A DNA stretch of 64,000 nt from Acidaminococcaceae bacterium (GCA_017405945.1 JAFQZL010000039.1:19335-83334); one strand, 5' to 3'; numbered from the stretch's first letter, positions 1,514 to 8,193 are shown. Numbers and translations are program-made. The notes: generated from the letters alone by a model not told the origin.

Positions 1514-2284
1514 TTAAAAATGTACAGAACCAACCCTTTTTTCCGCAAGGCTCCGTTCTGCCCATCCCGCGCAGTAAATGCTGCATTCAAACAGAAGAAT
1601 AGTCGGAACCGCCATCATGATCTGGCTCAGTACATCCGGCGGCGTTAAAAGGGCGCTGACGATAAAGCTCAATAACACAGCAAAGCGCCGGCCACGGCGC
1701 AGCGTATCCGCACGCAGCACTCCCGCCTTCGCTGCGATGGTGCAGGCTAAGGGCATTTCAAAAATCAGGCCGAAGGGAATCACAAACCCCAGCAGGAAAT
1801 TTACATAGCGGTCAATGGCAAACAGCGGCATGGCTGTTCCCGCGCCCGCATATACAAAAAAGCTCAGGGCCGATAAAAAGACGACACCATAGCCAAACGC
1901 CACGCCGGTCGCAAACAGCAGCAGGGAGAACACCGCCCAGCCAATGGCCAGTTTCCTTTCCTCCGGGTACAGCGCCGGCCGCACAAAGGCCCACATCTGC
2001 CACAGCAGCACCGGGGCCGCCAGCACCACGGCACAGAGCAACACCACCTTCAGCTGCACATACAGCGCATCCGCCAGACCCAGATAGATTAACTGCACGC
2101 CCTGTTCTTTCACCGGGGCCGCCACGGCATCCATCACCCGCTCGGGTCCGATATAAACGAGAACCGCAAATGCAAGAGCAACTGCCGCCACGCACCGGAT
2201 CAGCCGGCGGCGAAGTTCTCCTACATGTTCCCATAAGTCCATATCTATATTATTTTTCTGCAACTGCAGTTCCGGCTGGTTCAT
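1514..2284 (-). CDS. tatC: Twin-arginine translocase subunit TatC
   Basis: HVGELRRRL N-terminal motif, PALYPEER, FGLIFEMP, SALLTPPDVLSQ; adjacent to tatA; GGAG RBS upstream of 2284. Confidence 0.95.
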   Translation of the reverse strand: MNQPELQLQKNNIDMDLWEHVGELRRRLIRCVAAVALAFAVLVYIGPERVMDAVAAPVKEQGVQLIYLGLADALYVQLKVVLLCAVVLAAPVLLWQMWAFVRPALYPEERKLAIGWAVFSLLLFATGVAFGYGVVFLSALSFFVYAGAGTAMPLFAIDRYVNFLLGFVIPFGLIFEMPLACTIAAKAGVLRADTLRRGRRFAVLLSFIVSALLTPPDVLSQIMMAVPTILLFECSIYCAGWAERSLAEKRVGSVHF

Positions 2285-2435
2285 TTTCTTTCTCCGCGCC
2301 CTTATTCAGTTCCGCACGAAATTCCCGCAGGCTGGTGCCCAACGCCTTGCCTAAACCGGCCACCCGGCTGCCGCCGAATAATACCAGCGCAATCAATAAG
2401 ATAACCAGTAATTCTGTCGTTCCGATACGTCCCAT
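2250..2435 (-). CDS. tatA: Twin-arginine translocase TatA/TatE subunit
   Basis: 61 aa; IGTTELLVILLIALVLFG hinge followed by amphipathic helix (LGKALGTSLREFR); AGGAGG RBS. Confidence 0.93.
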   Translation of the reverse strand: MGRIGTTELLVILLIALVLFGGSRVAGLGKALGTSLREFRAELNKGAEKENEPAGTAVAEK

Positions 2436-2511
2436 TTTTTATTCCTCCTGTTCTTTAAACCCGGAAAGCGTCTTTCTCTTTTCGCTTAACTTTTCAATAA
2501 GTTTTCCGTCT

Positions 2512-2715
2512 TCAACTTTTTGCGGCCGGCTTATGCGCGCCGTCCTCACTGGCTTCGCCTTCTGCCAGCGCCAGCCAGTTGGTTTTCATAAATCCCCGCA
2601 GACCCACATAGGCACGGGCAGATTTTTTTGCGATACGGGGCAGATCCTTCGGTTCCAGCAGCAGAACCGCAAGAATCCCAATCATTACTATTTCGCCTAA
2701 CCCGATTTCCATCAC
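2512..2715 (-). CDS. tatB: Short TatB-like (TatA/B family) subunit
   Basis: 67 aa; EIGLGEIVMIGILAVLLLEPKDLPRIAK resembles the TatB N-terminus (DIGFxEL...GPxxLP); abuts the upstream flavoprotein gene. Confidence 0.7.
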   Translation of the reverse strand: MMEIGLGEIVMIGILAVLLLEPKDLPRIAKKSARAYVGLRGFMKTNWLALAEGEASEDGAHKPAAKS

Positions 2716-3246
2716 TCACACTTTCTTTCCTAACTCAAGGGCCTGAACCGGGTATTCCGTGCCTTCGATTGCGCTGCGGTAACCGCAGCCTGTCGCGTAG
2801 ATTTGTCCCTGGTCCTGCCACTCCATATATTGGCAAAGACGTGTATAATGCGCTTTTAACGCCGTCATCGTCCAGCTGTCGTTATTCCATGCGGTTGCCA
2901 GCAGTGCGGACTTCTTTTTATGGATGGAACCGGTACGGGAATAGAAACGGTCGATGACCGTTTTAAGCTGGGCGGAAAAGCCAAAATAATACAGAGGCGT
3001 TACCAGCACAATCATATCGCAGTCCACCAGCTTCTGAATCAGTTTCTCCTCAATGGCATCCTTCTGCACGCAGGGACCGTTCATGCCGCAGGCATCGCAG
3101 CCCCGGCAGGGATGGATGTCTTCGAAGGCAGCGTTGAAACGGAATACTTCATGCCCTTTACTTTCCGCACCTTCAATAAATTTATCTGCCAGCAGGGCCG
3201 ACGTACCGGCCTTATGCGGACTGCCTGTAACCACAACGATTTTCAT
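2716..3246 (-). CDS. Iron-sulfur flavoprotein / NADPH-dependent FMN reductase family protein, no signal peptide
   Basis: GSPHKAGTS FMN loop, CRGCDACGMNGPC (Cx2Cx2Cx5C) ISF-type motif, TPLYYFGFSAQLKTVIDR. Confidence 0.88.
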   Translation of the reverse strand: MKIVVVTGSPHKAGTSALLADKFIEGAESKGHEVFRFNAAFEDIHPCRGCDACGMNGPCVQKDAIEEKLIQKLVDCDMIVLVTPLYYFGFSAQLKTVIDRFYSRTGSIHKKKSALLATAWNNDSWTMTALKAHYTRLCQYMEWQDQGQIYATGCGYRSAIEGTEYPVQALELGKKV

Positions 3247-3260
3247 ATTCCGTATCCTCC

Positions 3261-3953
3261 TTATAAGCTCTTACCGATCCGGAAGGCCTGTTCCGGGAAT
3301 TCACTTCCTTCGATGGCAGAACGGCTGCCGCAGCCGTAGCCCAGCACCCGGCCCACATCCTGCCATTCCATGTAACGCACCAGCGTATTATAATGCTCCT
3401 GCAACGCGTTGAACGTAATATCCGAACTGTTCCAGGCGGTAGCCATCAGCATGGACTTTTTGCGATGGATGGCGCTGGTGCGGGAATAGAACCGGTCGAT
3501 TACGGTCTTGATCTGGGCGGAAAAACCGTAATAATACAGCGGCGTCACCAGAGCGACCATATCGCAGTCCACCAGCTTCTGGATCAATTTTGCCGAAATG
3601 GCATCCTGAATGACACAAGGGCCGTTCATGCCGCAGGCATCGCAGCCCCGGCAGGGGTTGATGTCTTCAAAGGCGGCATTGAAGCGGAATACTTCATGCC
3701 CCGCCGCCTGCGCCCCTTCAATGAACTTGTCCGCCAACAGGGCCGAGGTGCCGGCCTTATGCGGGCTGCCGCAAAGAACTACGATTTTCATTTTCTTTCC
3801 GTTAGACACGCCGCCGGGTTTTGCTTCCGCGCCGCCTGCTGACGGCGCCGCGCCGGCTTTCTTGTCCCCGCTGACTGCGTTGATGCCGCAGCCGCTGAGA
3901 AACAGGGTCAGCGCCCCGGCGCCGGTTACTTTCAGAAACTCTCTTCTGTCCAT
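3261..3953 (-). CDS. Tat-signal lipoprotein, iron-sulfur flavoprotein/flavodoxin family
   Basis: MDRREFLK twin-arginine motif, hydrophobic stretch, LSGC lipobox, Ala/Gly/Pro linker, then a domain closely paralogous to 2716-3246 with the same Cys motif. Confidence 0.9.
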   Translation of the reverse strand: MDRREFLKVTGAGALTLFLSGCGINAVSGDKKAGAAPSAGGAEAKPGGVSNGKKMKIVVLCGSPHKAGTSALLADKFIEGAQAAGHEVFRFNAAFEDINPCRGCDACGMNGPCVIQDAISAKLIQKLVDCDMVALVTPLYYYGFSAQIKTVIDRFYSRTSAIHRKKSMLMATAWNSSDITFNALQEHYNTLVRYMEWQDVGRVLGYGCGSRSAIEGSEFPEQAFRIGKSL

Positions 3954-3955
3954 GG

Positions 3956-4324
3956 TTAACTCCCCTTCTTCTTTGTCTGAAGTTCATAGCGCAGGTAATC
4001 AATCCGTTCCAGCGCTTTCTCTTTGCCGTGAATCGTTTCAAGTGTCCTGCCGCGTAATTTGTTCAGCATCTTCAGACAGGCTTCCGCAGAATTCTCCCCG
4101 TCCTGCCGCAGGCGCAGGTACGCAGCAATTTCTTCTTCCGCAAACCCGATTTCCTGTAACGTCATCCGTACACTCAGCTGTTCAATATCGCTGTCCGTAA
4201 ACCGGTATGCTTCCGCCTGCCTGTGCTTCCCACCCTTGCTTTCCGCATCTGCTTTTTCCGCTGCGTAGCGTTGCAGCAAGGCAAGCGGAATCTTATATTT
4301 TTCACTCACTTCCGTAATTGTCAT
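3956..4324 (-). CDS. MerR family transcriptional regulator
   Basis: MTITEVSEKY HTH start, YRFTDSDIEQL, coiled-coil C-terminus; start at 4324 chosen from the GGAGG RBS. Confidence 0.8.
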   Translation of the reverse strand: MTITEVSEKYKIPLALLQRYAAEKADAESKGGKHRQAEAYRFTDSDIEQLSVRMTLQEIGFAEEEIAAYLRLRQDGENSAEACLKMLNKLRGRTLETIHGKEKALERIDYLRYELQTKKKGS

Positions 4325-4423
4325 GCAATCCCTCCCTCTCAATACCCTTTCCAGGGTGTTTCATCTGTTATTATTGTAAGAAACTGTTGTGTGAAAGTCT
4401 AATACCGGTTTATCATTAAAAGC

Positions 4424-4440: not shown

Positions 4441-4451
4441 ATGAGAAAAGT

Positions 4452-4482
4452 AAAAAACGCTGACAAACCGTCAGCGTTTTTT
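4452..4482. terminator. Bidirectional intrinsic terminator after the LysR gene
   Basis: AAAAAACGCTGAC-aaacc-GTCAGCGTTTTTT. Confidence 0.8.
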
Positions 4483-4541
4483 AGAACTCATATACAATTC
4501 TCTAATCATTATTAAATTTAAACAGGATATTGCATCCGTCG

Positions 4542-5420
4542 TTACAGTAACGGAGCCGTAGTACGGACATGCTCAATAAACTTTGTCACAGCCGGAGGAA
4601 ACACCTGCTCTTTCCGCCATACCAACACGCTGTTGTTGCCTATCTCCGGTGACAACGGCCGCAGGCAGAGAGCGTTACCGGGAACCTCAAAACCATGGAC
4701 CAACGCCACCCCTACATGATTTTCCACCATGATGGAACAGTTGTTGTAAGAAAGGTTCACGGTCGTTACCACATGCATACGGCGATAATAATCCCCGAAC
4801 CAGTTATCCAGTTCGTTGCGCACGGAATGGCGCCGGGCAACGATCAACGGCACCCCCACCAGATCAGGAGGCGTTATCGTTTCTTTTTCTGCCAGCGGAG
4901 AATCGCGGCGCATCAGAAGGTACCATCTTTCCCGTAACGGCATACGTACAAAATTAAACCGGCTGATCTCCACCGGTTCCAGCAACAGCCCGAAATCCAG
5001 TGTCCCGTTCTCCAGCTTTTCCTTCACATCGTCCGCATTGGCCGTGTAGATATCAAAGACCACTTCCGGATAGTGTTGCCGGAAGGATGTCATCAGGCGG
5101 GACAGACCTTCCATATTATTGGTTTCACCGCAGCCGATCCCAATGGTGCCCGTTACCGTTTCCCTGTTCAGGATGATCTCCTGTTCCGCTTTATCCGCCA
5201 GTTCCAGAATCTCCTGGGCACGACGCCGTAGAAGCCGGCCTTCTTCCGTAAGCGTAACACTGACACGGTTGCGCCGGAACAGACGGACCCCCAGTTCCTC
5301 TTCCAACTGCATCATCTGCCGGGAAAGCGTCGGCTGGGTGATGTGCAGCTGTTCCGCCGCGCGGGTAATGTTTTCTTCTCTTGCTATTGTAAGAAAATAT
5401 TTCAGTACACGGATTTCCAT
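4542..5420 (-). CDS. LysR family transcriptional regulator
   Basis: MEIRVLKYFLTIAREENITRAAEQLHITQPTLSRQ HTH; 292 aa. Confidence 0.95.
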   Translation of the reverse strand: MEIRVLKYFLTIAREENITRAAEQLHITQPTLSRQMMQLEEELGVRLFRRNRVSVTLTEEGRLLRRRAQEILELADKAEQEIILNRETVTGTIGIGCGETNNMEGLSRLMTSFRQHYPEVVFDIYTANADDVKEKLENGTLDFGLLLEPVEISRFNFVRMPLRERWYLLMRRDSPLAEKETITPPDLVGVPLIVARRHSVRNELDNWFGDYYRRMHVVTTVNLSYNNCSIMVENHVGVALVHGFEVPGNALCLRPLSPEIGNNSVLVWRKEQVFPPAVTKFIEHVRTTAPLL

Positions 5421-5542: not shown

Positions 5543-6157
5543 TTATTTTCCCAGACCGTTATCCTTAAGCCAGCCGTCGAGGCCGCCGGTGGAGTTGAGC
5601 AGGATACCGTCTTTCACCTTGGCATTGGGAAGGGTTTTCCGCAAATCATCCACGCTTCCTTCAACACCGCTGCCACCGCTGGTGGCAAAGGGCAGAATCG
5701 TTTTGCCGGACAAGTCCTGCGCTTCTACAAAGGTTTTCACAGCCATGGGTTCAATGTACCACCAGATGGGATAACCAAGAAGGATTACATCGTACTGTTT
5801 CATGTCAGGCAGCGTTCCCGCCAGTTTGGGACGGGCATTGTCTGCTTTTTCTTTTTTGCCGATGTCAATAGTGGCATGGTAATCGGTGGGATACGGCGTT
5901 GCCGTTTTGATTTCAAACAAATCGCCGCCGGTCTTTTGCTGTATGGTCTGCGCCACCTTACGGGTAGTGCCTCCCCAGGAGAAATATGCCACCAGCACTT
6001 TCCCGTTCGCCGGGGCGGGAGCCGCTTCGGCCTTCTTGGTCACAGCCGCCGGTTTCGCGTCGCTTTTGGGCGCCTCGGCTTTTTTGTCGCCGCCGCAGCC
6101 CGCAAAGGAAATGCACAGGCAAAGCGCCATCAGTGTAAACATAATTCGTTTCAGCAT
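5543..6157 (-). CDS. Flavodoxin-domain lipoprotein (Flavodoxin_4 type)
   Basis: Sec signal with FAGC lipobox; VAYFSWGGTTRKVA, LLGYPIWWY, PFATSGGSG. Confidence 0.88.
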   Translation of the reverse strand: MLKRIMFTLMALCLCISFAGCGGDKKAEAPKSDAKPAAVTKKAEAAPAPANGKVLVAYFSWGGTTRKVAQTIQQKTGGDLFEIKTATPYPTDYHATIDIGKKEKADNARPKLAGTLPDMKQYDVILLGYPIWWYIEPMAVKTFVEAQDLSGKTILPFATSGGSGVEGSVDDLRKTLPNAKVKDGILLNSTGGLDGWLKDNGLGK

Positions 6158-6244
6158 AATAACATCTCCCTTATCTTATCTTAATCTTATTTTTCTATGA
6201 ATATTGAAAATTTACGGTTTGATGTATAGATTCAATATATATTT

Positions 6245-6275
6245 ATAATAACCATTAAAGCTAACTGTAAGTCAA
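6245..6275 (-). promoter_or_regulatory. MerR-type promoter TTGACT-N19-TATTAT with operator TTACAGTTAGCTTTAA
   Basis: 19-bp spacer holding an imperfect palindrome that matches the operator at 36543-36558. Confidence 0.7.
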
Positions 6276-6373
6276 GTATAATTTTCACAGATGTAAAACG
6301 CATTTTCCGGATTTATGCTATAAAACCGAATTTGATTTTTCGCGTCCAATATTATTTTATTTCAGCGTCAATA

Positions 6374-7378
6374 TCATTTCATATACCGGTTTGCGAAATC
6401 AGCAATTTCGTCCAGTGAATCAATGCTGTCCTGCATTTCGGGAAGCAGCAGCGCAAAGTCGTGGGACATGCCGGGATAGACCGTTAATGTAACGGGAATC
6501 CCATCCGCTGCGGCCTTCTCCGCCAGCCGCACGCTTTCCGTCAGGAAGAGTTCGTTACCGCCCGCCTGGATCAGCATCGGGGGCAGGCCGGACAGGTCGG
6601 CGTATATAGGCGAGAGCCGGGGATCCTTGCGGCTCAGTTTTCCTTTGTACTTCGCATCCTTGACCGGAGTGTTCAACGGCGTCCCTTTTCCTAAAATGAC
6701 ATCCTTTTCGTCGTTGTAATACCGGGAAGTTCCCTTCTTATGTTCAAAAGTCGTCCAGGGGGAAGCCAGCGCGATGACGCCGGGCTGGGGCAGTTTATTT
6801 TCCTTTAAGTACAGTGAAAGCTCAACTGCCAGGTTCCCGCCGGCGGAGTCACCGGTCAGAATAATGTTTTTCCCTTTAATGCCACGGTTCAGCAGCTCTT
6901 TGTAAACAGCTGCCGCGTCTTCCAGTGCCGCAGGATATACATGGGCGGGCGCCAGACGGTAATTGACAAAATACACTTCTCCCGCGTCCGCCAGGGTTGC
7001 CTGACGCAATCCCAGAATGCGGTGGTTATTGCTCATGCCGCCTACATAACCGCCGCCGTGCATCTGCAGCAACACCCGGTCGCTCTTTTTCTGGTCTGCG
7101 GTCATCCGTTCCAGGGTGATGCCGTTTACCGTAACGGTTTCCATCTTCCATCCAACCGGCGCTTCAAATGGCGCAGGCGGTTTCATCTGGCTGAAAAATT
7201 TTTTCATATAATCAGCAACATACTTTTCTTTTGCCTGTCCCTGCAGCACGATTCCGTCAGAGGGAATCGTCAGAGGCTGCGGCTCCGCCCAGATGGGGGA
7301 CGCATTAACAAATAAACCAATACTAACGACTGCAGTTGCCAGTAATGCTTTTGCTTTCAGGTTCATACCAATCTTCAT
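6374..7378 (-). CDS. Secreted alpha/beta hydrolase (HSL-family esterase/lipase)
   Basis: Signal peptide; HGGG oxyanion motif, GDSAG nucleophile, HDF catalytic His. Confidence 0.9.
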   Translation of the reverse strand: MKIGMNLKAKALLATAVVSIGLFVNASPIWAEPQPLTIPSDGIVLQGQAKEKYVADYMKKFFSQMKPPAPFEAPVGWKMETVTVNGITLERMTADQKKSDRVLLQMHGGGYVGGMSNNHRILGLRQATLADAGEVYFVNYRLAPAHVYPAALEDAAAVYKELLNRGIKGKNIILTGDSAGGNLAVELSLYLKENKLPQPGVIALASPWTTFEHKKGTSRYYNDEKDVILGKGTPLNTPVKDAKYKGKLSRKDPRLSPIYADLSGLPPMLIQAGGNELFLTESVRLAEKAAADGIPVTLTVYPGMSHDFALLLPEMQDSIDSLDEIADFANRYMK

Positions 7379-7428
7379 TTTAAATAGTCTCCTTGTTTTA
7401 ATTTTTATTATTTCATTTCTTATTCTTT

Positions 7429-8193
7429 TTATTTTTTATCGTGAAAGCTTTTTTTGCTCAGCACTACATTGCCCGGCAGGTTTTCAATTTCTTTTGTGCT
7501 GTTCAGCATCTGCTGCGCTTTTTTCCAAAATGCCTGATGGGCTTTTGAATTTTTATATGCATCGCGCGCCGCATCGTCTTTAAACAACTCATACGTGTGA
7601 ATCATGTTGGCGCGTTCCTGTTCTGCCGTCGCGAACAGTCCCATAACGCCGGCGTCTTCTTTTACGCCCCGGCGCATTTCTTTAGCGATCAGTTTCTTAA
7701 ACGCGTCCAGTTTTTCCGGTTTCACGTCGTACAGGTGAAGGATTACATTGGTCCCGGTTCCTTCGGTTTTCTGTTCCAGCACAATGGGATCAACGGGAAG
7801 GATTACAAGCTTTTCCAGAATTTCTTTCCGTTCTTCTTTGTATTTGTGGAAACCGTCGCTTCCTACATGAATTTCGTAGGCGGCTTCGTCTTCGTAAATT
7901 TCCAACAGGCGCATTACATTAGGATTCTGTTTGTCGAGGCTCCCGTACAACGCGTACGTGCCGGTTTCTTTGGCTGCCAGAGGCGCCACATTCCTTGCTG
8001 CCATACCCATCATTTCGTTCATTGTGCCCGGCTTGGACTGCAGCACGGCCCAGTGGACCATTGGCATTTTCCCTTCCGGCGTGGTAATCTCTTTTGCTTC
8101 CGTAACTTGTGCTGTCATCATAACACACCCCGCTAATACTAACGCTGATAATGATTTTCCTGACATTTTCTGAATGGATACGCGCAAGATCAT
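7429..8193 (-). CDS. Putative exported double-ABM-domain (quinol monooxygenase-like) protein
   Basis: Signal-peptide-like N-terminus; two ABM-like repeats (EIYEDEAAYEIH and ELFKDDAARDAY...HQAF). Confidence 0.75.
   Translation of the reverse strand: MILRVSIQKMSGKSLSALVLAGCVMMTAQVTEAKEITTPEGKMPMVHWAVLQSKPGTMNEMMGMAARNVAPLAAKETGTYALYGSLDKQNPNVMRLLEIYEDEAAYEIHVGSDGFHKYKEERKEILEKLVILPVDPIVLEQKTEGTGTNVILHLYDVKPEKLDAFKKLIAKEMRRGVKEDAGVMGLFATAEQERANMIHTYELFKDDAARDAYKNSKAHQAFWKKAQQMLNSTKEIENLPGNVVLSKKSFHDKK

Follow-up and report, generated by a model that had tools for sequence, protein, structure and literature searches.

A Tat operon linked to a twin-arginine ISF-like lipoprotein in an Acidaminococcaceae bacterium: a probable module for flavoprotein export

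The stretch of DNA analysed here (the window, 64,000 nucleotides from an Acidaminococcaceae bacterium, GCA_017405945.1 JAFQZL010000039.1:19335-83334) corresponds to contig C33:19335-83334; the genome to which it belongs measures 2.46 Mb, with a completeness of 99%. Six genes of the window, all on the minus strand, encode a MerR-family regulator, two flavoproteins resembling the iron-sulfur flavoproteins (ISFs), and the components of a twin-arginine translocation (Tat) system (Table 1). The first of the flavoproteins (hereafter referred to as RR-ISF) begins with a twin-arginine (RR) lipoprotein signal, and the second (ISF2) is a paralog without a signal. The initial annotation had described a tight packing in the order merR-isf-isf-tatB-tatA-tatC, and order, strand and spacing were all reproduced exactly, with intergenic gaps of 2, 14, 0 and 76 nt from merR to tatA and an overlap of 35 nt between tatA and tatC. 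No terminator-like site was detected in a scan from merR through tatC, and co-transcription of these genes is plausible from their spacing and this absence of terminators. The arrangement qualifies as cargo-linked, with the tat genes adjacent to the gene of the cargo, on one strand and with no intervening terminator. Shine-Dalgarno-like purine runs precede the RR-ISF, ISF2 and tatA genes and the upstream start of tatC; the tatB-like gene starts with GTG, with an ATG 3 nt further in. The RR-ISF protein is 100% identical to that of Succiniclasticum ruminis DSM 9236 (locus L039), which makes the host a rumen member of the Negativicutes; it is a diderm, with three Omp85-family genes in the genome.

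Table 1. Genes and sequence features of the RR-ISF operon and its surroundings in the window
Feature	Position	Strand	Remarks
merR	3956-4324	minus	leading gene of the operon, for a MerR-family regulator; gap of 2 nt to RR-ISF; ATG start
RR-ISF gene (230 aa)	3261-3953	minus	
Twin-arginine lipoprotein signal of RR-ISF	3888-3953	minus	aa 1-22, MDRREFLKVTGAGALTLFLSG-C22; TIGR01409 19.4 bits
Low-complexity Gly/Ala/Lys linker of RR-ISF	3792-3887	minus	aa 23-54; presumed flexible tether
Mature ISF-like flavodoxin-fold domain (FMN_red) of RR-ISF	3261-3791	minus	stop codon included
Four-Cys motif C101-x2-C104-x2-C107-x5-C113	3615-3653	minus	presumed [4Fe-4S] ligands
ISF2 (176 aa), signal-less paralog, Cys motif intact	2716-3246	minus	FMN_red match, 74% identity to mature RR-ISF
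tatB-like (67 aa), small membrane protein	2512-2715	minus	E-P-x-x-L-P hinge; TatA/B-family member, sub-threshold with TatB models
tatA (61 aa)	2250-2435	minus	PF02416
tatC (256 aa)	1514-2284	minus	PF00902 / TIGR00945; only TatC of the genome
MATE efflux transporter	28-1401	minus	directly downstream of tatC; module membership uncertain
Sigma-70-like promoter candidate TAGACT-17-TACAAT	4373-4401	minus	upstream of merR; consensus match only
Intrinsic-terminator-like hairpin (15-bp stem + T run)	4451-4483	minus	closes the upstream lysR unit; 5' boundary of the operon
LysR-family regulator	4542-5420	minus	upstream neighbour; recurs near RR-ISF genes of other Negativicutes
Sec-type lipoprotein flavodoxin (Flavodoxin_4, PF12682)	5543-6157	minus	possible periplasmic partner

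An MDRREFLK motif, an LSGC lipobox and a Cx2Cx2Cx5C motif had been noted in the 3261-3953 product, and all three are present. The RR-ISF product begins with MDRREFLKVTGAGALTLFLSGC, and this N-terminus scores 19.4 bits against the Tat-signal model TIGR01409 (curated cut-off 16.7), with the motif MD-RR-E-F-L-K followed by a canonical lipobox (L-S-G-C22; pattern [LVI][ASTVI][GAS]C). Lgt (PF01790) and LspA (PF01252) are both encoded in the genome, and the prediction of a Tat signal ending in a signal peptidase II (SPII) site is upheld on these grounds. Full-length homologs (56-98% identity, 100% coverage) are found in Succiniclasticum, Phascolarctobacterium, Megasphaera, Selenomonas, Pectinatus, Mitsuokella, Anaerovibrio, Schwartzia and Megamonas, where the public annotation reads merely "NADPH-dependent FMN reductase" or "flavodoxin family protein". 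In our survey of 80 species-level loci of Negativicutes with RR-ISF, the RR pair is at the same place in 77 and the lipobox Cys is present in about 75, and the complete Tat consensus (N/D)-R-R-E-F-L-K is kept in at least 73 distinct sequences. An analysis of the first 24 codons in 73 distinct DNA sequences of RR-ISF genes gave an entropy of 0.88 for the first codon position, 0.31 for the second and 1.39 for the third, with all six Arg codons used to encode the RR pair. The N-terminal extension is thus a translated segment on which purifying selection acts, and the concern that it might be absent from homologs or untranslated is dispelled. The linker that follows it (aa 23-54) differs between species and is disordered in the AlphaFold2 (AF2) model (predicted local distance difference test, pLDDT, <50 for residues 17-47). 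The ortholog at L013:8001-8651, from a metagenome-assembled genome (MAG) of Megasphaera sp. that is TatC-positive, has QR in place of RR (MDQREFLK), which may be a sequencing variant or an inactivating change. The ortholog at L071:8001-8672 (Phascolarctobacterium sp.) has the RR pair but no lipobox Cys (…LLVSGIGM…), and a soluble periplasmic form, or anchoring through the signal itself, is possible in this subclade.

TatC is nearly universal in the other families of the Negativicutes; it was found in 39 of the 70 Acidaminococcaceae genomes sampled and in three of six congeners. The rule of co-occurrence was restricted to genomes at least 90% complete, and all 19 Acidaminococcaceae genomes of this quality with a full-length RR-ISF that were tested are TatC-positive (17 plus G304 and G326). 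The relatives G328 and G329 are likewise TatC-positive, as are 47 of 50 further genomes with RR-ISF, including MAGs. No intact RR-ISF without TatC was detected in the family sample at this level of completeness. Genome G015 is the one Tat-less, 100% complete genome with an ortholog that matches at the N-terminus. In it, this ortholog (L094:1810-2476, minus strand) reads MNRHDFIRLAVAGFGTMLASGAAINF (MNRHDF…), with RR changed to RH and no lipobox Cys, and it is frameshifted into pieces of 197 and 73 aa; it is an apparent pseudogene following the loss of Tat. Such decay is the expected outcome if RR-ISF is useless without Tat. The restriction of intact RR-ISF to TatC-positive genomes, together with the decaying ortholog of the Tat-less genome, is in keeping with the Tat dependence initially proposed.

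The translocase genes themselves are readily recognized. TatC matches, over its full length, PF00902 with 211 bits (cut-off 25.1; E 1.9e-62) and TIGR00945 with 188 bits (cut-off 132.7), and TatA matches PF02416 with 54.7 bits (cut-off 21; E 6e-15), its score with TIGR01411 (48.1) being just below the cut-off of 53.9. The product of the tatB-like gene scores 27.3 bits with TIGR01410, against a cut-off of 56.5, and has no Pfam match at E ≤0.01. Its membership of the TatA/B family is retained and its assignment as a TatB equivalog is not, and by its sequence this 67-aa product is named TatB-like, a TatA/B-family paralog scoring below the TatB model. The genome contains one TatC and one clear TatA, in addition to the tatB-like gene, and the question of whether there is another tat locus is answered in the negative. 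RR-ISF is the only protein encoded in the 2.46 Mb with a match to TIGR01409 above the cut-off, and a scan of every possible start for an RR motif with an uncharged hydrophobic stretch revealed no second canonical RRxFLK signal. The mean Kyte-Doolittle hydropathy of the h-region is 1.7 for RR-ISF, versus 2.5-3.3 for Sec-like candidates from the same scan. A "dedicated" Tat, as the initial annotation called it, is the simplest reading for this strain, given its single TatC and single detectable signal; the term does not extend to the lineage, in which many TatC-positive relatives export other cargo. The sole other noteworthy RR-containing signal-like start is that of a 365-aa exported open reading frame (ORF) on the minus strand of contig C11, with the N-terminus (L/M)RRRFFAFLVLAICLL…; this protein starts with RRR, has a very hydrophobic h-region and is probably Sec-dependent.

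Both flavoproteins match FMN_red (PF03358), with E-values of 2.6e-18 for RR-ISF and 3.2e-19 for ISF2. Residues C101, C104, C107 and C113 and the flavin mononucleotide (FMN)-binding motifs GSPHxxGTS and TPLYYxxxSAQxK are invariant in 74 homologs. The spacing of the Cys residues of RR-ISF fits the compact ISF-type motif CX2CX2CX5-7C (definition in PMC3164229), and the protein would be expected to bind FMN, together with a [4Fe-4S] cluster on the four-Cys motif. The AF2 model has a pLDDT of 83 overall and above 90 in the mature domain, with a flavodoxin-like core, and its Foldseek matches are azoreductases, quinone reductases, WrbA and flavone reductase (E about 1e-9), with ArsH also among the nearest by fold. 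The nearest solved structures by sequence are those of the flavone reductase (FLR) Cd1/FLR (7d38) and a Bacillus subtilis protein (1rli), both with E about 1e-9. We use the label "ISF-like" rather than ISF for the protein. The NCBIfam equivalogs for quinone reductases and azoreductases were not reached (best PRK09739, 25 bits versus a cut-off of 162). The AzoR/WrbA/NQO-type enzymes (e.g. 3lt5, 4r81 and 1rli) share the fold (TM score 0.5-0.7) and the FMN-binding motifs but differ from RR-ISF as proposed here: they use cytoplasmic NAD(P)H and have neither an Fe-S cluster nor a signal. The N-terminal flavodoxin-like domain of FLR aligns with RR-ISF through the Cys-rich loop. However, FLR is a cytoplasmic protein of about 310 aa with a C-terminal tail essential for flavone binding (PMC7862272), whereas mature RR-ISF has 176 aa and no tail; a flavone reductase identity for RR-ISF was rejected on account of this missing tail. 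FLR is a dimer with FMN at the interface and is driven by FMNH2, a dependence on NAD(P)H being explicitly denied (PMC7862272); this matters here because RR-ISF would be located where there is no NAD(P)H.

Taken together with the gene order, we consider it likely that these genes constitute a cargo-linked Tat export module through which an FMN/[4Fe-4S] reductase would be delivered to the periplasmic side of the inner membrane. The 230-aa RR-ISF would fold in the cytoplasm and be loaded there with FMN and the [4Fe-4S] cluster; its RREFLK signal would be recognized by TatC, and the TatB-like, TatA and TatC proteins encoded just downstream would carry the folded protein across the inner membrane. 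Lgt would then lipidate Cys22 and LspA would subsequently remove the signal, leaving the catalytic domain held on a flexible tether of about 32 residues at the periplasmic face. There, RR-ISF would most likely act as a stress-inducible reductase of redox-active electrophiles or oxidants, under MerR-type control, with electrons that would come neither from NAD(P)H nor from a self-made quinol pool.

The association of the isf and tat genes was examined in the other loci. The tat(B)AC genes lie directly downstream of the isf genes at L002, L004, L005, L008, L009, L012 and L039, and tatC is immediately upstream of isf at L021, with tatA or tatC within a few kb at L052, L071, L078 and several Megasphaera loci. 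The isf-isf-tatBAC synteny sought in other genomes is therefore found in Succiniclasticum and its near relatives and does not hold beyond them. In other Succiniclasticum species, tatC is linked to a different Tat-signal cargo. One such alternative cargo is a 361-aa MBL-fold protein accompanied by a 476-aa membrane protein with no Pfam match, and another is a 358-aa DUF362 protein beside tatC. The recurring rule in the genus, as in B. subtilis, is that a cargo operon comes with, or draws to it, tat genes of its own. The 361-aa protein was considered as an NrfC-like ferredoxin, and this was rejected, its Pfam match being to the MBL fold. In genome G328, a Tat-signal FAD oxidoreductase (PF12831) is encoded about 5 kb from RR-ISF. 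The loci of these other Tat-signal genes are L088:5398-7933, L087:5606-6682 and L091:4572-6182.

Several findings weigh against a cargo-linked module for RR-ISF. In most loci of the Selenomonadaceae there is no tat gene within 8 kb of RR-ISF, and L003 and L007 contain merR-isf…MATE without tat genes, with an orthologous tatC (67-70% identical) on another contig; the presence of this tatC elsewhere in both genomes led us to reject these two loci as cases of RR-ISF without Tat. About 22 TatC-positive relatives lack RR-ISF, and their tatC adjoins other Tat-signal genes. In G225, a close genome resembling DSM 9236, a second tatC accompanies a second cargo, so that each cargo has its own copy (G174 also has two TatC). 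In the genome studied here, the 365-aa protein of contig C11 is a weak candidate for a further Tat cargo, and there may be cargo proteins with atypical signals, or exported by hitchhiking, to which scans with hidden Markov models (HMMs) and regular expressions are blind. No chain named ISF appeared in PDB-sequence profile searches (E ≤10) or among the top 50 Foldseek matches. The 99%-complete genome yielded neither a UbiA/MenA-family gene nor cytochrome bd, nor any other Tat-exported redox enzyme, and no electron donor is evident. An alternative is a general-purpose Tat, with several cargos missed by the scans and with an adjacency to isf that results from neutral rearrangement. This would account for genomes G328 and G329, which keep RR-ISF with an orthologous tatC (67-70% identical) at an unrelated locus, and for the lack of linkage of the tat genes in most Negativicutes, and the blindness of the HMM and regular-expression scans would leave room for it. 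We nevertheless consider it unlikely: in 2.46 Mb the model recognizes one signal only, about half of the family has lost Tat and in no such case is RR-ISF intact, and the tatC genes of sister species also lie beside Tat-signal genes (MBL-fold and DUF362), a cargo-linked pattern that argues against chance.

It is also conceivable that the RR pair merely happens to occur in a Sec/SPII lipoprotein signal, or that the signal is an uncleaved anchor, in which case RR-ISF would be exported unfolded and without cofactors or would face the cytoplasm. Basic n-regions are common in lipoprotein signals and the neighbouring flavodoxin lipoproteins carry plain Sec-type signals, but the conservation of the complete Tat consensus, the moderate hydrophobicity of the h-region relative to the Sec-like candidates, the strict co-occurrence with TatC and the decay of the gene in a Tat-less genome render this explanation highly improbable. 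Furthermore, the invariant four-Cys cluster site would be pointless in a protein exported unfolded, since we know of no periplasmic Fe-S assembly system. A third proposal concerns ISF2 and adds to the export module rather than competing with it: RR-ISF and ISF2 might form a heterodimer in the cytoplasm that is exported on the single Tat signal, ISF2 acting as a hitchhiker, to yield a periplasmic enzyme with one anchor. ISF2 lacks a signal, its gene is 14 nt from that of RR-ISF and the two proteins are 74% identical over the mature domain; moreover, the solved-structure relatives are dimers with FMN at the interface (PMC7862272). In a maximum-likelihood tree, the Succiniclasticum ISF2 is a lineage-specific duplicate of RR-ISF (support 98/94), and the signal-less partners from Phascolarctobacterium and Megamonas group apart, in a clade that branches more deeply (99/99). 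At least two independent origins follow for the tandem of an RR copy and a signal-less copy, one in the Succiniclasticum clade and the other in the Phascolarctobacterium/Megamonas clade. A signal-less copy comes after most RR-ISF genes in the Acidaminococcaceae. At L007:8001-8690, a single gene has the RR-lipoprotein signal in front of a mature domain of the ISF2 type (95% identity with ISF2 and 80% with RR-ISF), indicating that this body is compatible with export; the locus has neither a second isf gene nor tat genes, and the fusion probably arose by recombination between the tandem paralogs. However, a signal-less homolog stands alone, its Cys motif intact, in the Tat-less genomes G127 and G032, which makes an exclusively cytoplasmic function of ISF2 equally possible, and RR-ISF has no signal-less partner in most Selenomonadaceae and Megasphaera. 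Hitchhiking of ISF2 is thus put forward only tentatively, as a possible elaboration.

The export module for RR-ISF leaves the questions of location, substrate and electron donor. LolA and LolB are absent from the Negativicutes (PMC5007114), which makes retention of the RR-ISF lipoprotein at the inner membrane, on its periplasmic face, the most likely outcome. The outer face of the cytoplasmic membrane, initially suggested as its location, is accordingly retained in the form of the periplasmic face, and electron transfer outside the cell becomes the least likely of the example functions that were offered, given the diderm envelope. The gene context, the MerR regulator with its weak similarity to NmlR and the fold point to an inducible periplasmic reductase, for which quinones, azo/nitro compounds or, by analogy with ISF, O2/H2O2 are candidate substrates. 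The organism apparently makes no respiratory quinone, and quinol is disfavoured as a donor by the lack of UbiA/MenA and cytochrome bd; candidates for this role are free flavins in reduced form, hydroquinones from the environment and the lipoprotein flavodoxins encoded nearby.

Tat genes linked to a cargo are known from B. subtilis (phoD-tatAd-tatCd and tatAy-tatCy/EfeB (YwbN)) and Staphylococcus aureus (fepABC-tatAC), and Tat-dependent lipoproteins occur in Streptomyces and haloarchaea. As in these B. subtilis and S. aureus systems, the tat genes of the group studied here are with or beside the cargo and there are few cargos per genome; the sister strains G225 and G174 also resemble B. subtilis in running parallel cargo-linked TatC copies. 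By contrast, the cargo is an FMN_red/ISF-like Fe-S flavoprotein lipoprotein rather than a phosphodiesterase or a DyP peroxidase, the host is a diderm Firmicute, and the operon includes a TatB-like component and a MerR regulator. An RR signal ending in a lipobox and an adjacent gene for a signal-less partner are features shared with Tat lipoproteins and with Tat hitchhiker complexes, such as HybOC, DmsAB and PaoABC of E. coli (PMC4273604). Unlike in these complexes, the partner is a recent paralog of the cargo itself and not a different subunit, and hitchhiking is putative. Export of this sort thus follows known precedents, namely Tat operons linked to a cargo, Tat-dependent lipoproteins and, possibly, hitchhiking.

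ISF-type and FMN_red flavoproteins are regarded as cytoplasmic proteins fed by ferredoxin or NAD(P)H, and a whole rumen/gut Negativicutes clade of ISF-like flavoproteins with a conserved Tat-lipoprotein signal departs from this view. For the Isf family of Methanosarcina thermophila (Latimer 1996; Zhao 2001; Andrade 2005, as cited in PMC3164229), roles in the reduction of O2/H2O2 are reported and, as predicted for RR-ISF, its members are small flavodoxin-like FMN proteins of anaerobes with CX2CX2CX5-7C at the same position of the fold; unlike RR-ISF, the ISFs described so far lack an export signal, and they are ferredoxin-fed in the cytoplasm. The full-text literature that we searched contained no account of Tat-exported ISF or FMN reductases, or of relevant Tat systems in the Negativicutes. 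As far as this literature shows, the cargo class and its setting are new, with a putatively exported ISF-like clade across a bacterial class and, in this strain, the sole detectable Tat cargo of a quinone-less fermenter, and the gene set suggests an undescribed periplasmic redox enzyme in the Negativicutes. This genome is an unusually clean case, with one TatC, one detectable cargo and one operon, and the family provides natural experiments, in that Tat has been lost repeatedly, the cargo gene is decaying in a Tat-less genome and tat genes have moved to other loci. It would be of interest to determine the electron source of a periplasmic Fe-S flavoprotein in a fermenter without quinone synthesis or any other exported Tat redox enzyme, as this might help to explain how strict anaerobes in the rumen and gut handle oxygen, plant quinones and phenolics, and redox-active drugs at the envelope.

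The surroundings of the operon form a minus-strand run of exported versions of enzymes that are usually cytoplasmic (L093:13072-16738, which is C33 just upstream of the window, and window positions 5543-8193). This run includes two Flavodoxin_4 proteins (one a lipoprotein, the other anchored), lipoprotein forms of a DUF362 protein and of a DkgA-like aldo/keto reductase (the latter an NADPH enzyme that carries a lipobox), and two secreted proteins, a tandem ABM protein and an alpha/beta hydrolase; three MATE pumps and LysR/MerR regulators are interleaved. A Flavodoxin_4 lipoprotein is encoded within 2.5 kb of RR-ISF in 35 of the 80 loci, often 15-130 nt downstream. In Mitsuokella multacida (L079), the Flavodoxin_4 homolog about 2.5 kb from RR-ISF has a Tat-lipoprotein signal of its own (MNRREFLKMGG…LGGCG); elsewhere, members of this family use Sec-type lipoprotein signals. 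A broader scheme, in our opinion improbable, would have the Negativicutes maintain an extracytoplasmic flavoprotein network of RR-ISF (possibly with ISF2 as a hitchhiker), Sec- or Tat-exported lipoprotein flavodoxins and the exported aldo/keto reductase and ABM proteins, with electrons drawn from environmental shuttles (free flavins and hydroquinones) rather than from NAD(P)H or quinol; in S. ruminis this network would constitute a periplasmic redox shield, the whole Tat system being kept for no purpose other than its installation.

The scan gave no terminator between tatC and the downstream MATE gene, and a MATE transporter gene is a constant neighbour downstream of the isf(-tat) genes in Succiniclasticum (in the window and at L002, L003, L007, L012 and L039). 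MATE-family flavin exporters are known, Bfe of Shewanella being an example, and by this analogy a role of the MATE protein in supplying periplasmic flavin to Sec-exported flavodoxins is conceivable, although purely speculative. At the other end of the operon, the MerR protein matches MerR_1 (PF13411) with 24.9 bits (cut-off 21.6) and contains a single Cys; its similarity to NmlR is weak, with a score of 28.8 bits against the 175 required for the equivalog. The merR gene has an alternative TTG start upstream, reaching position 4342.

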